From the sequence record PQ303785.1: 64,000 nucleotides of DNA, one strand, 5' to 3'. The DNA is from Escherichia phage LYE-01. A model generated the notes under the pieces. That model saw only the letters and a program-made list of their open reading frames with translations, ran no database searches and was not told where the DNA came from. Position numbers and translations under genes: made by a program. Positions 2,067 to 57,530 of the stretch are shown here, in pieces; within the stretch, counting starts at the first letter, position 1; every line of letters begins with the position of its first letter.

Positions 2067-2096
2067 GTTTACTTCCTCGGTTAGTTGTGGTATTAT
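2067..2096 (+). promoter_or_regulatory. early promoter (GTTTAC, 18 bp, TATTAT)
   Basis: -35 at 2067-2072, -10 at 2091-2096. Confidence 0.6.
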
Positions 2097-2123
2097 AACA
2101 CCATAGCTACTGAGGATAATAAA

Positions 2124-2624
2124 ATGAAAATTTATCGTGTTGAATCATCTTTTAGTATTCTTAATTATGAAGATGCTATAACAATACGTCGAAATCTTTG
2201 TGTTCAAATAACGCCGTACAGGAGTATAATAGATTCATGGAGCGAAGAGTGGTTATTACACGTAGGTTATGATAGACCTAATTTTATGCATCATAGCGAT
2301 AATAATAAAAGAATTCCTTTACCACACGAAGATAAACTATTAGTTAAAAACGCTAATATAGTAATTAATACTAAGTTCAAGAAAGATTATGTTGGAGTAG
2401 AATATCATATTCCAGGATGGTTTATAGCTCTTTATCATTTTGCTTTCGCTAGTGAATATGATATGATGAGATGGTTCACACGAGAAGAGCGGGAAGAATT
2501 ATCTTCTAAAGGATTTTATCTTGCTGTATACGAAGTGCCAGATGACCAAGTTATCATTGGCAGGCGCCAAGTAATGTTCCGCAAATCACATGCTGAACTC
2601 GTAGATTTTATTGAAATGAGATAA
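2124..2624 (+). CDS. hypothetical protein (motB.2 position)
   Basis: Track ORF 2085-2624 begins with TTG inside the promoter; first ATG 2124 follows GAGGA. Confidence 0.5.
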   Translation: MKIYRVESSFSILNYEDAITIRRNLCVQITPYRSIIDSWSEEWLLHVGYDRPNFMHHSDNNKRIPLPHEDKLLVKNANIVINTKFKKDYVGVEYHIPGWFIALYHFAFASEYDMMRWFTREEREELSSKGFYLAVYEVPDDQVIIGRRQVMFRKSHAELVDFIEMR

Positions 2625-5305: not shown

Positions 5306-5566
5306 ATGAAATATGTTAATCGTTCTATCGCGGCATTAGTATTAGCAGTATCTTTAGTAGGATGTACTGATGCTGATAATGCAACCAAAGTTTTGTCTTC
5401 AAGTGGGTTTACTAATATTGAAATCACTGGATACAATTGGTTTGGTTGCTCTGAAAATGATTTCCAACACACTGGATTTCGTGCTATTGGACCTACTGGG
5501 CAGAAAGTAGAAGGAACCGTGTGTTCTGGTCTATTCTTCAAGGATTCGACTATCCGTTTTAAATAA
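5306..5566 (+). CDS. putative lipoprotein (lipobox LVGC)
   Basis: Track ORF starts TTG 5294; from ATG 5306: MKYVNRSIAALVLAVSLVGC, signal peptide plus lipobox cysteine. Confidence 0.5.
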   Translation: MKYVNRSIAALVLAVSLVGCTDADNATKVLSSSGFTNIEITGYNWFGCSENDFQHTGFRAIGPTGQKVEGTVCSGLFFKDSTIRFK

Positions 5567-5583
5567 AAGGCCTTCGGGCCTTT
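5566..5583 (+). terminator. hairpin terminator AAAGGCC-TTCG-GGCCTTT
   Basis: GC stem, UUCG loop, followed by TTTAGCTTT. Confidence 0.55.
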
Positions 5584-5584
5584 A

Positions 5585-5608
5585 GCTTTATGATTACTGG
5601 AGTATAAT
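5585..5608 (+). promoter_or_regulatory. candidate promoter for gene 39
   Basis: TATAAT 5603-5608 preceded by TAGCTTTA (MotA-box-like); no GTTTAC. Confidence 0.4.
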
Positions 5609-9910: not shown

Positions 9911-10849
9911 ATGTACAATATTAAATGCCTGACCAAAAACGAACAAGCTGAAATTGTTAAACTGTATTCAAGTGGTAATTACACCCAACAGGAATTGGCT
10001 GATTGGCAAGGTGTATCGGTTGACACAATCCGTCGTGTTTTGAAAAATGCTGAAGAAGCTGAGCGTTCCAAAGTTACTATTAGCGGTGATATTACAGTTA
10101 AAGTTAAGAGTGATGTAGCTATTGCTTCAGTTGCTAAATCTGACATTATTTGGAATGCATCTAAAAAATTCATTTCAATTACTGTTGATGGCGTAACTTA
10201 CAACGCAACTCCTAATACTCATTCAAACTTCCAGGAAATTCTTAATCTGCTTGTTGCAGATAAATTGGAAGAAGCGGCACAAAAAATTAATGTTCGTCGC
10301 GCTGTTGAAAAATATATTTCCGGTGATGTTCGAATTGAAGGTGGAAGCCTGTTCTATCAAAATATTGAATTGCGGTCTGGTTTAGTTGATCGTATTCTCG
10401 ATTCGATGGAAAAAGGTGAAAACTTTGAATTTTATTTTCCGTTCTTGGAAAATCTGCTGGAAAACCCGAGCCAAAAAGCGGTATCTCGACTCTTTGATTT
10501 CTTGGTAGCAAACGATATTGAAATTACAGAAGACGGTTACTTCTATGCTTGGAAAGTAGTTCGCAGCAATTACTTTGACTGTCACTCAAATACCTTTGAT
10601 AACAGTCCTGGTAAAGTAGTTAAAATGCCACGTACTCGTGTGAATGACGATGATACACAAACTTGTTCTCGTGGTCTGCATGTGTGTTCTAAATCTTATA
10701 TTCGTCACTTTGGCAGTTCAACCAGTCGAGTTGTAAAAGTTAAAGTACATCCTCGCGATGTAGTATCAATTCCGATTGATTACAACGATGCTAAAATGCG
10801 TACCTGCCAATACGAAGTAATTGAAGACGTTACTGAACAATTTAAATAA
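9911..10849 (+). CDS. rIIB: rIIB protein
   Basis: 312 aa, MYNIKCLTKNEQAEI N-terminus, follows rIIA. Confidence 0.9.
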   Translation: MYNIKCLTKNEQAEIVKLYSSGNYTQQELADWQGVSVDTIRRVLKNAEEAERSKVTISGDITVKVKSDVAIASVAKSDIIWNASKKFISITVDGVTYNATPNTHSNFQEILNLLVADKLEEAAQKINVRRAVEKYISGDVRIEGGSLFYQNIELRSGLVDRILDSMEKGENFEFYFPFLENLLENPSQKAVSRLFDFLVANDIEITEDGYFYAWKVVRSNYFDCHSNTFDNSPGKVVKMPRTRVNDDDTQTCSRGLHVCSKSYIRHFGSSTSRVVKVKVHPRDVVSIPIDYNDAKMRTCQYEVIEDVTEQFK

Positions 10850-10863
10850 GGGCTTCGGCCCTT
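10849..10863 (+). terminator. hairpin after rIIB
   Basis: AGGGC-TTCG-GCCCT; weak U-run. Confidence 0.45.
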
Positions 10864-10877
10864 AACTAAGGAAAATT

Positions 10878-11072: not shown

Positions 11073-11076
11073 AATA

Positions 11077-11099
11077 AGGGGCTTCGGCCCTTTTGTTTT
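11077..11099 (+). terminator. rho-independent terminator
   Basis: GGGC-TTCG-GCCC then TTTTGTTTT. Confidence 0.6.
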
Positions 11100-11110
11100 A
11101 AGGAAAAATT

Positions 11111-12434: not shown

Positions 12435-12464
12435 GTTTACAAGACTGTTCCTCTGTGGTATTAT
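12435..12464 (+). promoter_or_regulatory. early promoter
   Basis: GTTTAC 12435-12440, TATTAT 12459-12464. Confidence 0.6.
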
Positions 12465-12492
12465 TACTCTATCAACTACGGAGGAACAGAAA

Positions 12493-12606
12493 ATGAAAAA
12501 GATTGTTAAAGCTATATGGAATGTAGTTATAATACTAGTAGTTTTGAGTATATTCCCAATCGTTTTAATGATTGATGTATTAAACGCTTACTTTGGATTT
12601 ATGTGA
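12493..12606 (+). CDS. hydrophobic micro-ORF (37 aa)
   Basis: MKKIVKAIWNVVIILVVLSIFPIVLMIDVL...; ATG after GGAGGAACAG and an early promoter. Confidence 0.45.
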   Translation: MKKIVKAIWNVVIILVVLSIFPIVLMIDVLNAYFGFM

Positions 12607-32909: not shown

Positions 32910-32938
32910 TTTACAGAAGGGTAGTAGTGTGATACTAT
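32909..32938 (+). promoter_or_regulatory. early promoter
   Basis: GTTTAC 32909-32914, TACTAT 32933-32938. Confidence 0.55.
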
Positions 32939-32963
32939 TACCCTATCAATTAAGGAGAATAAA

Positions 32964-33206
32964 ATGAGATTACAACGCCAGAGCATCAAAGATTCAGAAG
33001 TTAGAGGTAAATGGTATTTTAATATCATCGGTAAAGATTCTGAACTCGTTGAAAAAGCTGAACATCTTTTACGTGATATGGGATGGGAAGATGAATGCGA
33101 TGGATGCCCTCTTTATGAGGATGGAGAAAGCGCAGGATTCTGGATTTATCATTCTGACGTCGATCAGTTTAAAGCTGATTGGAAAATTGTGAAAAAGTCT
33201 GTTTGA
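32964..33206 (+). CDS. hypothetical protein
   Basis: ORF track; early promoter and AAGGAG SD upstream. Confidence 0.5.
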   Translation: MRLQRQSIKDSEVRGKWYFNIIGKDSELVEKAEHLLRDMGWEDECDGCPLYEDGESAGFWIYHSDVDQFKADWKIVKKSV

Positions 33207-39740: not shown

Positions 39741-41328
<1,588 letters not shown>

Positions 41329-41331
41329 GCT

Positions 41332-41361
41332 GTTTACAAGTCCCTCGTGTTGTGTTACAGT
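41332..41361 (+). promoter_or_regulatory. early promoter for alc
   Basis: GTTTAC 41332-41337, TACAGT 41356-41361; near-duplicate of the 57151 cassette. Confidence 0.55.
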
Positions 41362-41392
41362 AGTCTTACTGACATAACATGAGGACTTTATG

Positions 41393-41896
41393 ATGGATTT
41401 ACAGCTTATTACTACTGAAATGGTCGTTGAAGCATATGGTGATACTACAGATGGGATTTCTGTATTTAAAGGAAATCGTCGAGTTGGATATATCACCGAT
41501 CTTAAGAAAGATTTAGCTAAGCAAGTTAAGCGGAAAACGACCATCAAAGAATATCGAAATCGTCGTCTTGAGCAAGCCCGTGATATGCTTCCTGATGCAG
41601 TTGAGGAGATGAAAGTCTTTTTAGAAAATCAGCTTGCGAAATATGATTGTGAAGTATTCATTAATCAGACTCAACCTAATGTTCATATTAATAACTGTAA
41701 ATGCTACATCATTGTTAATCCTTTGACAGAAAAGCATCGTCTTGGAATTAGTAATCCAAATCGTAGCGCATCAGATATGGCAGAAGATGTTGAGGCATGC
41801 TTTAAAATTTCTAAATCTCCAGCTGAACATCATATTTTAATTAACGGTCTTTCTCAAGACGATATTGTAGAGGTTATTAAAACTTTATGCATGTAA
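41393..41896 (+). CDS. alc: Alc (host transcription unfolding protein)
   Basis: 167 aa from second ATG; position after gene 63. Confidence 0.7.
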   Translation: MDLQLITTEMVVEAYGDTTDGISVFKGNRRVGYITDLKKDLAKQVKRKTTIKEYRNRRLEQARDMLPDAVEEMKVFLENQLAKYDCEVFINQTQPNVHINNCKCYIIVNPLTEKHRLGISNPNRSASDMAEDVEACFKISKSPAEHHILINGLSQDDIVEVIKTLCM

Positions 41897-44653: not shown

Positions 44654-44655
44654 CA

Positions 44656-44685
44656 GTTTACTTTACGGTAGAGTTGTGATATTAT
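44656..44685 (+). promoter_or_regulatory. early promoter
   Basis: GTTTAC 44656-44661, TATTAT 44680-44685 inside the loop of GGTAGAG/CTCTACC. Confidence 0.55.
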
Positions 44686-44715
44686 AGCTCTACCAAAACA
44701 AATGAGGAAATTGAA

Positions 44716-45243
44716 ATGAGCGAATGGTTTGAAGAAGATAAGGTTTATCGCTTTAAAGCTGGATATAAAGATATTTTTAATGAAACTTGCGGAGCTAATA
44801 AACGAATTGCACAGTTTATTGGGGAAAATTCATTTAAAGTAAAAATAGATCCTGCGAAAAATGTTATTAGCATTAAACGTGAAATTGATGATTGCTGGTA
44901 TAAAGCTGTTGATGTAATGGGTGAATCCTATAAAGTTAGTCCGTTATTTTCAATTGCTTATATGTTAGAATATTCTTTTTTCGAAGAAGTTCAAAAAGAT
45001 GATTCTGTCAGTAAATTTGAAATTAAAGCTGATAAAGAAATTAAATGGAAAGTAGTAGGTATTACTGGTTGTATGTTCTATATCTATGCTCAAACTGATA
45101 CGAAGGAAGAAGCTAAAAAGAAAGCTCTAGAATATCTTGAAGAGTATGAAGAAGGTCCGGTAATGATTACTCAAGATGCCGAATTAGTTTCTGTCAAATT
45201 AGTTAAAAACGTTGAAAGTAAGGAGCTTGGATCAACATGCTAA
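44716..45243 (+). CDS. hypothetical 175-aa protein
   Basis: ORF track; early promoter and GAGGA SD upstream. Confidence 0.5.
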   Translation: MSEWFEEDKVYRFKAGYKDIFNETCGANKRIAQFIGENSFKVKIDPAKNVISIKREIDDCWYKAVDVMGESYKVSPLFSIAYMLEYSFFEEVQKDDSVSKFEIKADKEIKWKVVGITGCMFYIYAQTDTKEEAKKKALEYLEEYEEGPVMITQDAELVSVKLVKNVESKELGSTC

Positions 45244-48194: not shown

Positions 48195-48227
48195 GTTTAC
48201 AGTATAGTTCCTTTGTGATAGTATTAT
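48195..48227 (+). promoter_or_regulatory. early promoter
   Basis: GTTTAC 48195-48200, TAGTAT/TATTAT 48219-48227. Confidence 0.55.
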
Positions 48228-48251
48228 CTTACACAAACAAAGGAGAATAAA

Positions 48252-48584
48252 ATGAAAACGATTAATCTGAACGCTGCGGTTAAAGCTAAATGTTTCAATG
48301 GTGAATATAACGAAACTATGTGGTTCTTAATGGCAGTTGAAGGTGATATTATTGAAGTAGAAACAACAGAAGGTATGGGAACAGATTTCACCTTTACAAT
48401 TCAAGTTCATAATTTCTTTACTGGTTGGATTTATGAATTGAATACAGTAATCGTTGGAAAAATTGAACAAAATGAATTAGGTGAATGGTATTATGTTACA
48501 GCTCGCCAACGTGCAGAACGCTTAATTGAGAAGATGAAAAAAGTTGGCAAACTTGACATGCAGCACTGGAAAGTAGTAAAATAA
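48252..48584 (+). CDS. hypothetical protein (30.8 position)
   Basis: ORF track; early promoter, AAGGAG SD. Confidence 0.5.
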   Translation: MKTINLNAAVKAKCFNGEYNETMWFLMAVEGDIIEVETTEGMGTDFTFTIQVHNFFTGWIYELNTVIVGKIEQNELGEWYYVTARQRAERLIEKMKKVGKLDMQHWKVVK

Positions 48585-48586
48585 TT

Positions 48587-48615
48587 GTTTACTTTGGTAC
48601 AGGATATGATATTAT
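48587..48615 (+). promoter_or_regulatory. early promoter
   Basis: GTTTAC 48587-48592, TATTAT 48610-48615 inside the loop of GGTACAGG/CCTGTACC. Confidence 0.55.
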
Positions 48616-48652
48616 ATACCTGTACCGCAATTAAACATCTTGGAGAATAAAA

Positions 48653-49018
48653 ATGAACTACATCAACTTTGAACGTAAATATGTTTCTAACGGTATTGCA
48701 GGTTCTATTGATACTATTTGCCTTTGGAAACATCAAAATGGATCAGTATGCGAAATTGAACAGTATATGACTCCTAACTACGTTTATATGCGATTTGAAA
48801 ATGGCATCACGGTTTCAATCACGAAAGAAGGTTCTTCTTTTAAAATCGCATTAGATGATGATTTCCGTCAACGCGATTTAGGTACTCATCCTTGCTGGAA
48901 TGGCGTCAATCGTAAGCTTCTGGTTAAAACTTGGATTCGTCATATTCTGAGTAACAGAGCTAAACCTGAGCATCTTGAAGCGATCTTTGATGTAGTTCTT
49001 AATGAATTTGATATTTAA
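48653..49018 (+). CDS. hypothetical protein (30.7 position)
   Basis: ORF track; early promoter, GGAG SD. Confidence 0.5.
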   Translation: MNYINFERKYVSNGIAGSIDTICLWKHQNGSVCEIEQYMTPNYVYMRFENGITVSITKEGSSFKIALDDDFRQRDLGTHPCWNGVNRKLLVKTWIRHILSNRAKPEHLEAIFDVVLNEFDI

Positions 49019-49026
49019 AATAAAAT

Positions 49027-49042
49027 AGGGGCTTCGGCCCCT
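49027..49042 (+). terminator. hairpin AGGGGC-TTCG-GCCCCT
   Basis: GC stem with UUCG loop; no U-run. Confidence 0.4.
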
Positions 49043-49058
49043 TACTGAGGAAAATACT

Positions 49059-52759: not shown

Positions 52760-52944
52760 AAGCTTACTTAGAAACAATTGTCGTGGCTCAAAAAGAAGGT
52801 GGAGATGTTTCTACTTCGGTATCACAAGTCATTCTCGAATTTGTAGATGCATATGCTTATAATAAATTTACAGAAACATTTGATGCCTACGAAAAAGGTC
52901 CAAAGTTTGAAATATATCGTACTCTCTTACCACTAGATTATTAA
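52756..52944 (+). CDS. hypothetical 62-aa protein
   Basis: ORF track; followed by hairpin terminator. Confidence 0.45.
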   Translation: MKAYLETIVVAQKEGGDVSTSVSQVILEFVDAYAYNKFTETFDAYEKGPKFEIYRTLLPLDY

Positions 52945-52960
52945 AGGCCTTCGGGCCTTT
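52943..52960 (+). terminator. hairpin terminator, identical to the one at 5566
   Basis: AAAGGCC-TTCG-GGCCTTT then AATTTT; precedes the alt late promoter. Confidence 0.55.
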
Positions 52961-52965
52961 AATTT

Positions 52966-52973
52966 TATAAATA
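52966..52973 (+). promoter_or_regulatory. late promoter (TATAAATA) for alt
   Basis: Exact TATAAATA between terminator hairpin and alt start. Confidence 0.65.
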
Positions 52974-52996
52974 GAATAAACACTAGAGAGGATATG

Positions 52997-55090
52997 ATGG
53001 AACTCATTACAGAATTATTTGACGAAGATACTACTCTTCCGATTACAAACTTAAATCCAAAGAAGAAAATACCACAAATTTTTTCAGTTCATGTTGATGA
53101 TGCAATTGAACAACCAGGCTTTCGTTTATGTACCTATACATCTGGAGGTGATACTAATCGCGATTTAAAAATGGGCGATAAAATGATGCATATTGTTCCT
53201 TTTACATTAACTGCTAAAGGTTCAATTGCTAAATTAAAAGGTCTCGGTCCAAGTCCAATTAATTACATCAATTCAGTTTTTACTGTTGCAATGCAGACGA
53301 TGCGTCAGTATAAAATTGATGCCTGTATGCTTCGTATTCTTAAGTCTAAAACTGCTGGTCAAGCTCGACAAATTCAAGTTATTGCTGATAGACTTATCCG
53401 TAGTCGTTCAGGTGGCAGATACGTCCTTCTTAAGGAACTCTGGGATTACGATAAAAAGTACGCATATATTCTTATACATCGCAAAAATGTATCACTAGAA
53501 GACATTCCAGGAGTTCCGGAAATTAGTACCGAGCTTTTTACTAAAGTCGAATCGAAGGTCGGCGATGTTTATATCAATAAAGATACTGGAGCTCAAGTAA
53601 CTAAAAATGAAGCAATTGCAGCATCTATTGCGCAAGAAAATGATAAACGTTCTGACCAAGCTGTAATCGTTAAAGTTAAAATTTCCCGTAGAGCAATTGC
53701 GCAAAGTCAATCATTAGAATCTTCTAGATTTGAAAGCGAATTATTCCAGAAGTATGAATCTACCGCAGCCAATTTTAATAAGCCTGCTACTGCTCCTTTA
53801 ATTCCAGAAGCAGAAGAAATGAAGCTTGGAATTAATTCATTAGCTTCTAAAACTAAGGCAGCAAAAATCATTGCCGAAGGAACCGCAGATGAACTTCACT
53901 ATGACTATAAATTCTTTTCAAAAAGTGAGGTTAATGAAGTTTCTGAAAAAATTAAAGATGTAATTCTTAATGCGATTAAAAATGAACCAACTACTTCAAT
54001 AAAATGTTTAGAGAAATACGCAGCAGCTGTTAATCAATTCTTTGAAGAATATAAAGATAATTGGCTTGATAAACATAATAAAACTCGTAAAGGACAGCCA
54101 GATGAAGTCTGGGAAGAAATAACTAAAAATTCCTGGAACGCAGCAAAAACTAAATTCCTCAAACGAATGATTTATAGCTTTTCTGGAATTGGTGCAGGTC
54201 CAATGATTGATATTACCATTGCCCGTGATGGTTCTAAATACACTCCATCGCAAAAGCGCGGAATTAGAGAGTATTGCGGATCAGGATATACTGACATCAA
54301 TAATCTTCTTTTAGGCCGCTACAATCCAGAACGATATGATGTAATGAGTGAAAAAGAAATTGAATCTGCGATAAATAATTTAGATTCAGCTTTTGAAAAT
54401 GGTGACCGTATACCAGAAGGCATTACAGTTTATCGTGCTCAAAGTATGACTGCTCCTATATATGAAGCACTAGTTAAAAATAAAGTGTTCTATTTCAGAA
54501 ATTTTGTATCTACTTCTTTAACTCCTATCATTTTTGGACGTTTTGGAATTACACATGCTGGTATCGGTCTTTTAGAACCAGAAGCTCGCAATGAATTAAC
54601 AGTTGATAAAAATGAAGAAGGAATAACTATTAATCCAAACGAAATAAGAGCGTATAAAGAAAATCCTGAATACGTTAAAGTTCAAATAGGATGGGCTATT
54701 GATGGAGCTCATAAAGTTAATGTTGTATATCCAGGAAGTCTCGGAATAGCAACAGAAGCTGAAGTTATTCTACCACGCGGATTGATGGTCAAAGTTAATA
54801 AAATAACTGATGCTTCTAATAATGATGGAACAACATCTAATAATACAAAACTCATTCAAGCTGAAGTTATGACTACGGAAGAACTCACCGAATCGGTAAT
54901 TTATGACGGTGACCGTCTAATGGAAACTGGTGAATTGGTTGCAATGACAGATGATATTGAAATAGAAGACAGAGTTGACTTTGCATCATTTGTTTCATCA
55001 AATGTTAAACAGAAAGCAGAATCATCTCTCGGAATTATTGCGTCTTGCATAGATATTACAAACATGCCTTACAAGTTCGTTCAAGGATAA
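52997..55090 (+). CDS. alt: ADP-ribosyltransferase Alt (head-packaged)
   Basis: MELITELFDEDTTLPITNL N-terminus; R (YRAQ), STS (FVSTSLTP) and ExE (EAEVILPRG) motifs; late promoter upstream. Confidence 0.85.
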   Translation: MELITELFDEDTTLPITNLNPKKKIPQIFSVHVDDAIEQPGFRLCTYTSGGDTNRDLKMGDKMMHIVPFTLTAKGSIAKLKGLGPSPINYINSVFTVAMQTMRQYKIDACMLRILKSKTAGQARQIQVIADRLIRSRSGGRYVLLKELWDYDKKYAYILIHRKNVSLEDIPGVPEISTELFTKVESKVGDVYINKDTGAQVTKNEAIAASIAQENDKRSDQAVIVKVKISRRAIAQSQSLESSRFESELFQKYESTAANFNKPATAPLIPEAEEMKLGINSLASKTKAAKIIAEGTADELHYDYKFFSKSEVNEVSEKIKDVILNAIKNEPTTSIKCLEKYAAAVNQFFEEYKDNWLDKHNKTRKGQPDEVWEEITKNSWNAAKTKFLKRMIYSFSGIGAGPMIDITIARDGSKYTPSQKRGIREYCGSGYTDINNLLLGRYNPERYDVMSEKEIESAINNLDSAFENGDRIPEGITVYRAQSMTAPIYEALVKNKVFYFRNFVSTSLTPIIFGRFGITHAGIGLLEPEARNELTVDKNEEGITINPNEIRAYKENPEYVKVQIGWAIDGAHKVNVVYPGSLGIATEAEVILPRGLMVKVNKITDASNNDGTTSNNTKLIQAEVMTTEELTESVIYDGDRLMETGELVAMTDDIEIEDRVDFASFVSSNVKQKAESSLGIIASCIDITNMPYKFVQG

Positions 55091-55093
55091 ATC

Positions 55094-57151
55094 ATGGAAC
55101 TTATTACAGAATTATTTGACGGCGCTTCGGCGCCGGTTGTTAACTTAAATCCTAAGCATAAAATACCTCAAATTTTTGCTATTCAAGCAGGCGAAGAAAG
55201 CGTGCTTCCTGGATTTAGATTTTGTACATACACCTCTGGCGGTGATACAAATAAAAACGTTAAGCCAGGCGATAAAATGATGCATATCGTAATGATAGGT
55301 GTCAATGAGAAACTATCATTAGTTAAACTTAGAAACTTGGGTGGAAATCCAATTGGTGTCATTAATGCGGTTTTTGATACTGCTCTTCAGACAATGAAAC
55401 AATACAAAATTGACGCATGCTTATTCCGCGTACTAAAGAGTAAAACAAATGGTGCAGCTCGTCAAATGCAAGTTATTGCCGACCGTTTAGTACGTACTAA
55501 AGGAGCAGGTCGATATGTTCTTTTAAAGGAAATCTGGGATTACGATAAAAAGTACGCATATATTATGGTTTACCGTAAAAATGCTAATTTAGAAGACATT
55601 CCAGGTGTACCTCCTATTTCAACTGAGTTATTCACAAAAGTTGAATCAAAGGTTGGTGATGTTTATGTAGATGTTAAAACAGGTAATGCTGTTCCTAAAG
55701 CTGTTGCTGTTGCTGCTTCTATTGCTTTAGAAAATGATAAGCGCACGGATCAAGCTGTTATTCAGAAAACTAAAATTAGTCGTCGGTTAGCAGCACAAGC
55801 TCAATATTCTACTGTCGATGCTTCACTTCAGGGTGATAGCTTCGCTGCTAAGAAATATCAAGAGTTTGAATCTAAAGTTCCGGTATATAAAGCAGAAGGA
55901 CCAATGAACTCTGGCGTTATTCAGGTTGGTTCAAACTTCAGCAAAGGAGCTATCGGTGGTATGAGAAGTGCTTCCCGTTTTAAATCTAGTGATTATGAAT
56001 TAGAAAGCTTCCGAAATCATATTGCATTGGCTCATGCGCGTTTACGTGATCCATCTATCAAGTTACAGAGCGATATATCATATCAAGGTTCTCAAGAATA
56101 TTTAAAGAATAAAGAATTTTTTGATTATAAAACTGATAAAATTTTAAGTGATCTTGCTGACATTAATATTTCTAATAGCTTTGATGTTATTAAGAAAATT
56201 GTCAATGATTTAGTTAAAGGTTCTAAAGCCACACCAGATGAAAAGGTAGCTATTGTTCAATTTGTCATGAATGGCGTTTATAAATTGATTAATGAGTCTG
56301 CTTCTCAAGCGTATGAATATGCAAGTACTGAAGTAACTCCAAAAGGATTAACTCAGGCTGAGTCTGATGTAATTGAAGATTATTGTGCAGATTCATATGT
56401 TGAAATGAACTCGTTCCTTTTAGGTAAACCGGATTCTACTCGTGAAGAATACATGGAACGAGCTATTAAACACATCGAGACAATGGATTCTGCCTTTGCC
56501 AAAGGATCAGTTCTTCCTCCAGGAACTACACTTTACCGTGGACAAGAAGTTACCTTTAAAACTTTACGTCATAATATTGAAAATAAAATGTTCTACTTCA
56601 AGAACTTCGTATCCACATCGCTTAAACCAAATATCTTCGGTGAGTATGGTAAAAACTATATGGCTCTAGATGATTCCGGCGCAGTATTTTCTGGTGAAGG
56701 AGAAGGTTCAGTTGACGCAGAAGATTTGATGCATATGGGCAGTCACTCTGCTTATGCGAATGAAGATGCTGAAACTAGCGTGGGTATGGTAATTAAAGGA
56801 GCTGAGCGAATCAAAGTTATCGTTCCAGGACATTTATCAGGATTTCCATCAGAAGCTGAAGTTATTTTACCGCGTGGAATTTTGCTGAAGATTAATAAAG
56901 TGAGTACGTACATGATGAAAGAAACTGCTTATAATAAGTATCTAATCGAAGGCACAATCGTTCCTCCTTCTGAACAATTAGAAGAATCGGTATATGATGG
57001 CGACCATCTAATGGAAACTGGTGAAGTTCGTCCAATGGCTGGATTTAATCAATTCCTTGTAGAAGAATCAAAAGAAGAGGAAAACGAAGTTTCTCAAATC
57101 TTGGCTTCTTTGGTTAACATCAACGGAATGTCTAAAAAGTTCAAGATGTAG
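55094..57151 (+). CDS. Alt paralog, second ADP-ribosyltransferase
   Basis: 685 aa; N-terminal ~200 aa nearly collinear with Alt; YRGQ / FVSTSLKP / EAEVILPRG motifs intact. Confidence 0.75.
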   Translation: MELITELFDGASAPVVNLNPKHKIPQIFAIQAGEESVLPGFRFCTYTSGGDTNKNVKPGDKMMHIVMIGVNEKLSLVKLRNLGGNPIGVINAVFDTALQTMKQYKIDACLFRVLKSKTNGAARQMQVIADRLVRTKGAGRYVLLKEIWDYDKKYAYIMVYRKNANLEDIPGVPPISTELFTKVESKVGDVYVDVKTGNAVPKAVAVAASIALENDKRTDQAVIQKTKISRRLAAQAQYSTVDASLQGDSFAAKKYQEFESKVPVYKAEGPMNSGVIQVGSNFSKGAIGGMRSASRFKSSDYELESFRNHIALAHARLRDPSIKLQSDISYQGSQEYLKNKEFFDYKTDKILSDLADINISNSFDVIKKIVNDLVKGSKATPDEKVAIVQFVMNGVYKLINESASQAYEYASTEVTPKGLTQAESDVIEDYCADSYVEMNSFLLGKPDSTREEYMERAIKHIETMDSAFAKGSVLPPGTTLYRGQEVTFKTLRHNIENKMFYFKNFVSTSLKPNIFGEYGKNYMALDDSGAVFSGEGEGSVDAEDLMHMGSHSAYANEDAETSVGMVIKGAERIKVIVPGHLSGFPSEAEVILPRGILLKINKVSTYMMKETAYNKYLIEGTIVPPSEQLEESVYDGDHLMETGEVRPMAGFNQFLVEESKEEENEVSQILASLVNINGMSKKFKM

Positions 57152-57180
57152 TTTACAAGTCACTCGTGTTGTGTTATAAT
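57151..57180 (+). promoter_or_regulatory. early promoter for the 96-aa ORF
   Basis: GTTTAC 57151-57156, perfect TATAAT 57175-57180. Confidence 0.6.
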
Positions 57181-57211
57181 AATCTTACTGACATAACATG
57201 AGGAACACAAA

Positions 57212-57502
57212 ATGAAATCTTCTTTGCGCTTTTTAGGTCAAGAACTCGTAGTTGAAGGCGTTATTCCTGCTGATAACGCTTTTAATGAAGCGGTTTACGA
57301 CGAATTTATCAAAATTTTTGGAACAGATAAAAAGTTCGGAATTTTTCCTTCTGAAAATTTTTCAAAGCCAGAACAGACTGAAAGCATTTTCCAAGGTGTA
57401 GTAACAGGTAAATTTGAGTCAGAAGCTCCGGTAAAAATTGAAGTTTATATTGAAGACAGTTTAGTTGCTTCAGTTGCTGCTTTTATTTCATTCCGTAAAT
57501 AA
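57212..57502 (+). CDS. hypothetical 96-aa protein
   Basis: ORF track; own early promoter; bidirectional terminator follows. Confidence 0.5.
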   Translation: MKSSLRFLGQELVVEGVIPADNAFNEAVYDEFIKIFGTDKKFGIFPSENFSKPEQTESIFQGVVTGKFESEAPVKIEVYIEDSLVASVAAFISFRK

Positions 57503-57508
57503 AAATAT

Positions 57509-57526
57509 GGGGACCTTTCGGTCCCC
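57509..57526. terminator. bidirectional hairpin between convergent genes
   Basis: GGGGACC-TTTC-GGTCCCC between the + ORF ending 57502 and gene 54 ending 57531. Confidence 0.6.
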
Positions 57527-57530
57527 ATTG

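Follow-up and report, generated by a model that had tools for sequence, protein, structure and literature searches.

Two near-identical early promoter cassettes, one before alc and one before alt.-3, were compared in the 64,000-nucleotide window (the whole stretch of Escherichia phage LYE-01 DNA that was analysed, PQ303785.1). Each cassette is an imperfect inverted repeat in which the promoter spacer and -10 are complementary to the leader and Shine-Dalgarno (SD) sequence, a complementarity missed in an earlier, sequence-only reading of this DNA. The preferred reading, given a probability of roughly 0.6, is that the two cassettes are paralogous, that the spacer serves as an anti-SD which would mask the SD in read-through RNA and so act as an early-only gate, and that the alt.-3 copy came from alc.

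From these sequences we infer a start site, a read-through RNA and an effect on translation. Transcription from a cassette's own promoter would begin inside the loop and yield an mRNA that lacks the 5' arm and has an open ribosome site. RNA arriving from upstream would have both arms, and its stable hairpin would hide the SD. Read-through into alc would come from transcripts of rnlA and of early or middle promoters further upstream; read-through into alt.-3 would come from late alt transcripts and extend as far as the terminator at 57507-57528. Alc and Alt.-3 would be synthesized only while their own early promoters fire, despite later transcription of both genes.

The cassette pair and its genomic setting

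The window is from a Tequatrovirus (T4-like); the closest records were Yersinia phages fPS-90 and ZN18, locally at least 99% identical. Copy A of the cassette (promoter, leader and SD; 41332..41385, + strand) occupies the rnlA/alc intergenic space and was near-identical or identical in T4 and 499 Tequatrovirus records. Upstream of it is rnlA (gene 63; 40204..41328, + strand, with the start inferred from the 1125-nt T4 rnlA), and downstream is the gene for the inhibitor of host transcription, alc (41393..41896, + strand), with a second in-frame ATG at 41390. Copy B (57151..57204, + strand), which has a T4 counterpart, separates the second alt paralogue from alt.-3, its first G being the last base of the preceding TAG stop codon. 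Two tandem full-length alt paralogues (ADP-ribosyltransferase; 52994-55090 and 55094-57151, + strand) stand upstream of copy B. The second paralogue was full-length in the window, whereas T4 has remnants only (alt.-1 and alt.-2). The 96-aa alt.-3 (57212..57502, + strand) is non-essential in T4 (PMC11618068) and convergent with gene 54; the alt.-3 transcription unit ends at a bidirectional intrinsic terminator between the two (57507..57528), which the DalCa and ASO78A records annotate as well. The sequence-only reading had placed the copies before alc and before the ORF downstream of the alt paralogue, and these positions and genes were correct, that ORF being alt.-3.

Read-through at both sites is plausible. 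A late-promoter-like TATAAATA was found at 52966, just 5' of the first alt paralogue, and since Alt is a virion protein, late alt transcripts should reach alt.-3. A MotA-box middle-promoter-like motif (ATGCTT...TACTAT; a pattern match only) was found at 40151-40177, directly 5' of rnlA. The published mapped T4 middle promoters include no entry matching this position, while T4 middle promoters upstream of rnlA were identified in nrdB and nrdA (PMC2988021). The nrdB and nrdA promoters and the MotA-box-like motif together make read-through into alc plausible. Elsewhere in the window, a family of near-identical GC-rich hairpins, GGGCTTCGGCCC and GGCCTTCGGGCC (families D5 and D12), had A/T runs on both sides and resembled intrinsic terminators with UUCG-type loops. 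These hairpins were located at 5563-5596, 10839-10876, 11073-11106, 49018-49055, and 52940-52973.

In an ungapped alignment copies A and B were identical at 50 of 54 positions (93%), from the G of GTTTAC to the final A of GAGGA, and the flanks on both sides were without similarity. The identity thus runs through the leader and SD, as the sequence-only reading had said. Its list of mismatches (the -10 hexamer and one spacer base) was accurate for those positions and short in its implied count of three: there were four, namely C versus A in the spacer (41343), C/T and G/A in the -10 (41358 and 41360), and G/A at 41363, 2 nt 3' of the -10.

The 22-nt 3' half and the 20-nt 5' half of the cassette each had two matches in the 64-kb window at up to three mismatches, compared with about zero in shuffled sequences, which excludes chance for the pair. 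Other early promoters of the window formed families (D1, D2, and D8) at 60–79% identity, with likeness mostly upstream of or across the -35 and -10 and none extending downstream, whereas the pair is 93% identical as far as the SD. The pair is therefore distinct from the generic early promoter consensus, the possibility against which the sequence-only reading had set its claim.

When the 54-mer was searched by BLAST in 50,697 phage records, 499 of them matched at 997 places in total, about two per genome and all at least 90% identical; in these records no copies were found beyond Tequatrovirus-like genomes. This search for further copies, proposed with the original observation, thus ended at two per half in the window and about two per genome. 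In IMG/VR a scan returned only 10 stretches from five sources, each contributing two; three of the sources were single contigs, and the others were samples that were each split over two contigs. T4 had the pair at the same two loci, its copies 53/54 identical to each other, and every close T4 relative checked had the pair at the same two places. An average of about two copies in each of 499 genomes marks the pair as fixed in the genus, and the element is not proliferating. Gene duplication was rejected as a source of the pair, the Alc and Alt.-3 proteins being without similarity.

The sequence-only reading had also proposed the pair as a recombination substrate. As a live process this was not supported. 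The interval between the direct repeats contains genes 30 and 31, so that a repeat-mediated deletion should be lethal, and no genome was without either copy or rearranged.

Promoter, leader and predicted read-through hairpin

In each cassette the promoter scan picked out a strong early promoter of the sigma-70 type (TTTACA, 17 bp, TGn, and -10). Behind it come a leader of about 20 nt and the SD GAGGA (41381-41385 in copy A and 57200-57204 in copy B, + strand), the whole fitted tightly between the preceding stop codon and the start of alc or alt.-3. In copy A the -35 TTTACA was at 41333..41338 (+ strand; TTTACA-17-TACAGT, TG present, 9/12) and the extended -10 (TGn and TACAGT) at 41353..41361 (+ strand), in the apical part of the hairpin. 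The promoter of copy B (TTTACA, 17 bp, TGn, TATAAT; 57152..57180, + strand) scored 11/12. A "predicted early promoter" is annotated at copy A in the fPS-90 record, and the copy B homologue in the ASO78A record is annotated as similar to a T4 early promoter.

Both sites had the -35, spacer, TAnnnT -10, and extended -10 TGn of T4-type early promoters. Against the generic T4 early promoter (UP/-35/TGn/-10; Hinton, 2010, PMC2988021), the pair shared GTTTAC, the 17-bp spacer, TGn, and TAnnnT, and alc is immediate-early. It differed in having no initial-transcribed motif ACAACTATCAAC, which is common to several other early promoters of the window, and in adjoining coding sequence where a clear A/T-rich UP tract normally sits. 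Upstream of the -35, an A/T-rich run was located about 20–45 nt away at site A and none was obvious at site B; in both cases this sequence is a coding 3' end. The T4 late promoter TATAAATA was absent from both cassettes. Taken alone, neither promoter is unusual: similarity-based annotations of both existed before, and T4 has the pair as well. A literature search with the cassette sequence strings returned no relevant paper; Liebig and Ruger (1989), the 1994 T4 book, and Miller (2003) may mention the pair or the spacer:SD pairing.

Both leaders contained an upstream AUG (cAUGAGGA) that opens a mini-ORF of 4 or 5 codons (41378-41392 and 57197-57215), whose UGA overlaps the main start codon (AUGA). 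As no SD precedes this AUG, the mini-ORF is probably not translated.

The 5' arm of the copy A hairpin (41338..41362, + strand) consisted of the spacer and -10 and included the anti-SD CCCUC. The 3' arm (41367..41388, + strand) consisted of the start of the cassette's own transcript, the leader, and the SD, and the predicted duplex had an energy of -21.7 kcal/mol. The anti-SD CCCUCGUG..., right after the -35, pairs with the leader/SD sequence ...CAUGAGG. In copy B the predicted read-through hairpin (57163..57202, + strand) covered the GAG of the SD GAGGA. Transcription is predicted to start about 7 nt after the -10, near 41368 at site A and near 57187 at site B; in T4 the predicted starts would be near 136,303 and 123,028 (minus strand). 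The 5' arm is upstream of this predicted start and would be missing from the cassette's own transcript, so the hairpin would form only in read-through RNA.

Read-through RNA was predicted to fold at -28.6 kcal/mol (z -5.75) at site A and -20.2 kcal/mol (z -3.5) at site B, while the predicted own-start RNAs of both sites were essentially unstructured. The predicted cost of opening positions -13 to +3 was 15.5 kcal/mol in read-through RNA versus 3.8 kcal/mol in own-start RNA at site A, and 12.9 versus 2.1 kcal/mol at site B. The unpaired probability of the SD at site A was 0.01–0.02 in read-through RNA versus 0.71 in own-start RNA. The SD of site B was covered in part (GAG only) and its unpaired probability showed a weak contrast (0.26 versus 0.31), the difference there being one of stability. 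The shared RNA-level regulatory site suggested by the sequence-only reading was thus right in that an RNA-level feature exists, and it took another form, a hairpin of the spacer with the leader/SD that is predicted in read-through RNA only.

The same hairpin could be read as a module of the PeSL type (early promoter, stem-loop, and SD with ATG at the 3' end; Arbiol, 2010, PMC2839356; Comeau, 2014, PMC4122927). The stem-loop would terminate or attenuate upstream transcription and insulate the downstream unit, and the cassette would be a homology patch for shuffling, with the identity of the copies as its trace. All parts of such a module are present in the cassettes, including the promoter-overlapping stem-loop. 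In RB49 and phi1 the stem-loops are often between the -35 and -10 or over the -10, and one of them cut lacZ expression like a strong terminator (PMC2839356). One GenBank record also labels the alt.-3 hairpin a rho-independent terminator (WebGeSTer). Against a terminator, the scan called no intrinsic terminator at either cassette. At site A no more than UUUAU followed the hairpin, and no U-tract followed the stem at site B (GGAACACAAAAUG) or at the alc hairpins of other genera (for example GGAGAAAACGAAAUG). This reading is considered unlikely.

A role of the hairpin in RNA processing or stability is considered very unlikely. In this reading a duplex of about 20 bp would be cut by RNase III or would be left after endonucleolytic cleavage as a stabilizer of the 3' end, separating the fates of the upstream (rnlA or alt) and downstream (alc or alt.-3) messages, with SD masking a side effect or co-function. 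The stems of 13–22 bp, their conserved pairing, and their place at the 3' end of the upstream cistron would suit such an element, and T4 makes heavy use of mRNA processing (PMC3014915). The cassettes showed no specific nuclease signature, however, and their Rfam search returned no relevant family; the SD GAGGA is without GGAG and is therefore not a RegB site. Processing would also leave two regularities unexplained: the end of the 3' arm falls on the SD in nearly every case, and the 5' arm is always upstream of the start.

Conservation at alc and origin of the alt.-3 copy

The order rnlA-alc and its short gap were kept in Gelderlandvirus, Karamvirus, Moonvirus, Klebsiella phages, Dhakavirus, Roskildevirus, and others. 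Among 14 representative alc arm types from other Tevenvirinae, 11 had the design of the alc cassette, with different arm sequences and one layout: TTTACA, anti-SD arm, -10 in the loop, SD arm, 5–8 nt, and ATG. The distance from TTTACA to ATG was constant at 59–63 nt.

Run on 26 alc leaders in a plain alignment by MAFFT, RNAalifold found no structure, the 3' arms being misaligned, and was replaced by a swap test of arms and a same-register alignment of a subgroup. In the swap test, own-arm duplexes had a mean energy of -17.3 kcal/mol versus -8.9 kcal/mol for cross-lineage duplexes (permutation p<1e-4), and the own 3' arm ranked first in 12 of 14 rows. In the same-register alignment of 10 alc sequences, 94.6% of cells paired, versus 39–47% in slid controls, and compensatory changes were found at 4 of 17 pairs. 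Some of these fell within the SD itself, as UCUCC/GGAGA, UCCUC/GAGGA, and UCCCC/GGGGA (spacer/SD). Covariation inside the SD is predicted by SD masking and is not required of a terminator. On this comparative evidence the hairpin structure at alc is clearly selected. Strand asymmetry was used to tell action in RNA from action in DNA: summed over the family, sense and antisense folds were about equal (-383.6 versus -373.7 kcal/mol); G.U pairs clearly favored the sense RNA in Tequatrovirus only.

The exceptions show that SD masking at alc is not universal. In the set of 14 arm types, L046 (with its near relative L062) and L051 had a hairpin that encloses the -10 and ends just 5' of the SD, with no predicted SD masking. 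Outside this set, Mosigvirus L018/L050 and L063, L064, and L066 had a small intra-spacer hairpin only. Hairpins that surround the -10 may do something else, instead of masking or alongside it. Gaprivervirus-like IMG/VR contigs L037, L038, and L065 had a hairpin over the -35 and an anti-SD hairpin downstream of the -10. In these contigs, and also in TH41 and TH22, the alc match was split by about 240 extra nt and the frame stopped after about 77 codons; alc is, as far as these matches indicate, interrupted or rearranged in them.

Within Tequatrovirus both copies were compared in 11 genomes (22 copies). The consensus forms of the two sites were identical. Variable positions were confined to 9–16 (5' arm), 27–33 (-10 and discriminator), and 40; elsewhere in the leader and SD there was no variation. 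The contrast of a varying 5' arm with a near-invariant 3' arm indicates a constraint on the leader beyond pairing, and raises the possibility that a trans-acting regulator common to alc and alt.-3 uses the leader as its operator. Copies differed on average by 2.64 positions within a genome and 2.79 between genomes (p=0.34), so that no homogenization or concerted evolution of the A and B copies was detectable in the 11 genomes, a further point against live recombination between them. Derived bases were found at both sites in KRT47 (TACAGT) and T2 (G32A), and may reflect occasional conversion or parallel mutation.

All variants in eight genomes kept the predicted masking, at 12–17 versus 1.5–3.4 kcal/mol. 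Recurrent changes in the 5' arm were G.U to A-U and C-G to U.G, which fit a helix of sense-strand RNA. A haplotype with three 5'-arm changes, found in T2 and UViG 3300010279, kept or improved the pairing.

At the alt.-3 site, the alt/alt.-3 gap of Gaprivervirus, Mosigvirus, Marfavirus, and Gelderlandvirus contained an early promoter and the SD CATGAGGAA without a spacer:SD hairpin, and the predicted opening-cost difference there was 0.8–2.8 kcal/mol. As the hairpin is present at alc across genera and absent at alt.-3 in these four, its design is, on this distribution, of long standing at alc and a later arrival at alt.-3. Only the alc site has the full outer stem AAGUCC/GGACUU, the 3' partner of which falls outside the repeat, and together with the four hairpin-less genera this gives the direction of copying as alc to alt.-3. 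The alt.-3 copy probably had a single origin from the alc cassette, by copying or conversion in the Tequatrovirus ancestor, and the exchange would have run between motifs that both sites already shared, the -35 and CATGAGGA. The portable cassette of the sequence-only reading is therefore retained for one copying event, probably of this direction and age; otherwise the pair is fixed at two syntenic sites.

In Enterobacter phage CIP9 (Kanagawavirus, L025 341-412), the alt.-3 promoter spacer GAATGAACG was complementary to codons 2–4 (CGTTCATTC). The predicted hairpin of -28.9 kcal/mol would hide the start codon in read-through RNA, with 12.7 kcal/mol of masking. CIP9 appears to have an independent version of the same device, modeled from its predicted fold, and this suggests that alt.-3 has repeatedly had to be silenced on read-through RNA.

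Alternatively, the pair could have no special function: a promoter was copied fairly recently, just before the Tequatrovirus radiation, promoter and SD constraint kept the copies alike, and the repeat at alt.-3 is passive or acts at the DNA level, as a cruciform or in promoter melting. The identical consensus forms would fit such an origin, as would the scattered differences, mostly private to one site, the similar means within and between genomes, and the four genera whose alt.-3 site has no hairpin; the coding DNA that flanks the copies is also 90–99% identical within the genus. This account has difficulty with the strong masking held by all observed alt.-3 variants, with the preserved or improved pairing of the T2/UViG 3300010279 haplotype, and with the independent masking at alt.-3 of Kanagawavirus beside a selected structure at alc. 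A DNA cruciform is unlikely in the Tequatrovirus form because of its G.T mismatches and bulges. An absence of function is regarded as very unlikely, and masking of the SD in read-through RNA is preferred.

Related devices and possible meaning for early gene expression

In T4, the SD or AUG of e, soc, 49, and I-TevI is masked in long transcripts, with a proximal late promoter between the arms (PMC3014915). The two cassettes resemble these genes by prediction at both sites: the SD or AUG is buried in RNA from upstream, transcription starts between the arms, transcripts of the proximal promoter are translatable, and the arrangement is cis-acting with no protein factor. They differ in the internal promoter, which is late (TATAAATA) and gives "late only" expression in e, soc, 49, and I-TevI, whereas the cassettes have a sigma-70 early promoter in place of a late one and are predicted to be "early only". 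They also differ in that the anti-SD is the promoter spacer itself. The structure was conserved with covariation at alc; at alt.-3 it was conserved in Tequatrovirus only, with Kanagawavirus having its own. Neither alc nor alt.-3 is among the masked-gene examples of PMC3014915. The cassette is most likely, on the modeled structures, a masking hairpin with an internal early promoter and a new example of the e/soc/49/I-TevI logic.

PeSL units share with the cassettes a compact early promoter/stem-loop/SD/ATG unit that is repeated in the genome, and their stem-loop may overlap the spacer or -10. Exchanges between PeSL units are documented, which fits the origin of the alt.-3 copy; the duplication itself needed an exchange between two promoter regions, a point in favor of a PeSL-type module. 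PeSLs are different in being many per genome, in lying in hyperplastic regions near indels, and in having been read as terminators and recombination modules. The alc/alt.-3 pair had two fixed copies in gene orders (rnlA-alc and alt-alt.-3-54) that are conserved across genera, not beside indels; it had no terminator signature, and its stem reached the SD. SD masking is not proposed in the PeSL papers, from which the word "sequester" is absent (PMC2839356, PMC4122927).

Strong spacer:SD pairing was found in 5 of 13 early promoters of the window (+ strand, beside genes; permutation p=2e-4), those at 2067, 12435, 41332, 48195, and 57151. The predicted opening-cost difference was 8–16 kcal/mol in these five, versus -0.6 to 2.2 kcal/mol in five computed controls. 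Three of them had spacer:SD sequences unrelated to the alc cassette: 2067-2126 (+ strand; duplex -17.4 kcal/mol), before a motB.2-like gene after dexA; 12435-12495 (+ strand; -23.8 kcal/mol), before a 37-aa ORF; and 48195-48254 (+ strand; -11.3 kcal/mol), before a 110-aa ORF at the T4 30.8 position. Early promoters at 44655-44716, 48587-48653, and 32910-32964 had hairpins that enclose the -10 and fall short of the SD, with stems such as GGTAGAG...CTCTACC and GGTACAGGATAT...ATACCTGTACC. These resemble PeSL stem-loops and count toward the PeSL reading. With these five promoters and the design at alc in most genera, many early-promoter spacers of Tevenvirinae could double as anti-SDs and form a widespread early-only translational gate: after early-promoter shut-off, read-through would keep the genes transcribed while their translation stopped. 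This generalization is considered rather less likely than not.

Alc is a terminator of host transcription, and mutations in alt.-3 let T4 escape the CmdTAC defense system. If the gate works, it would explain how T4-like phages confine Alc and Alt.-3 to the earliest minutes of infection even though both genes follow genes that are transcribed later, and it would extend a classic T4 device from late to early genes. For annotation, the hairpins at both sites should not be called intrinsic terminators by default, and PeSL stem-loops, so far read as terminators, would gain a second, testable function. The interval between the -35 and -10, usually deemed free, would be constrained by the RNA that it encodes. 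Were the gate widespread, promoter spacers would be under RNA-level selection, and the shut-off of early protein synthesis in T4, so far understood in part, would gain a cis-encoded component.
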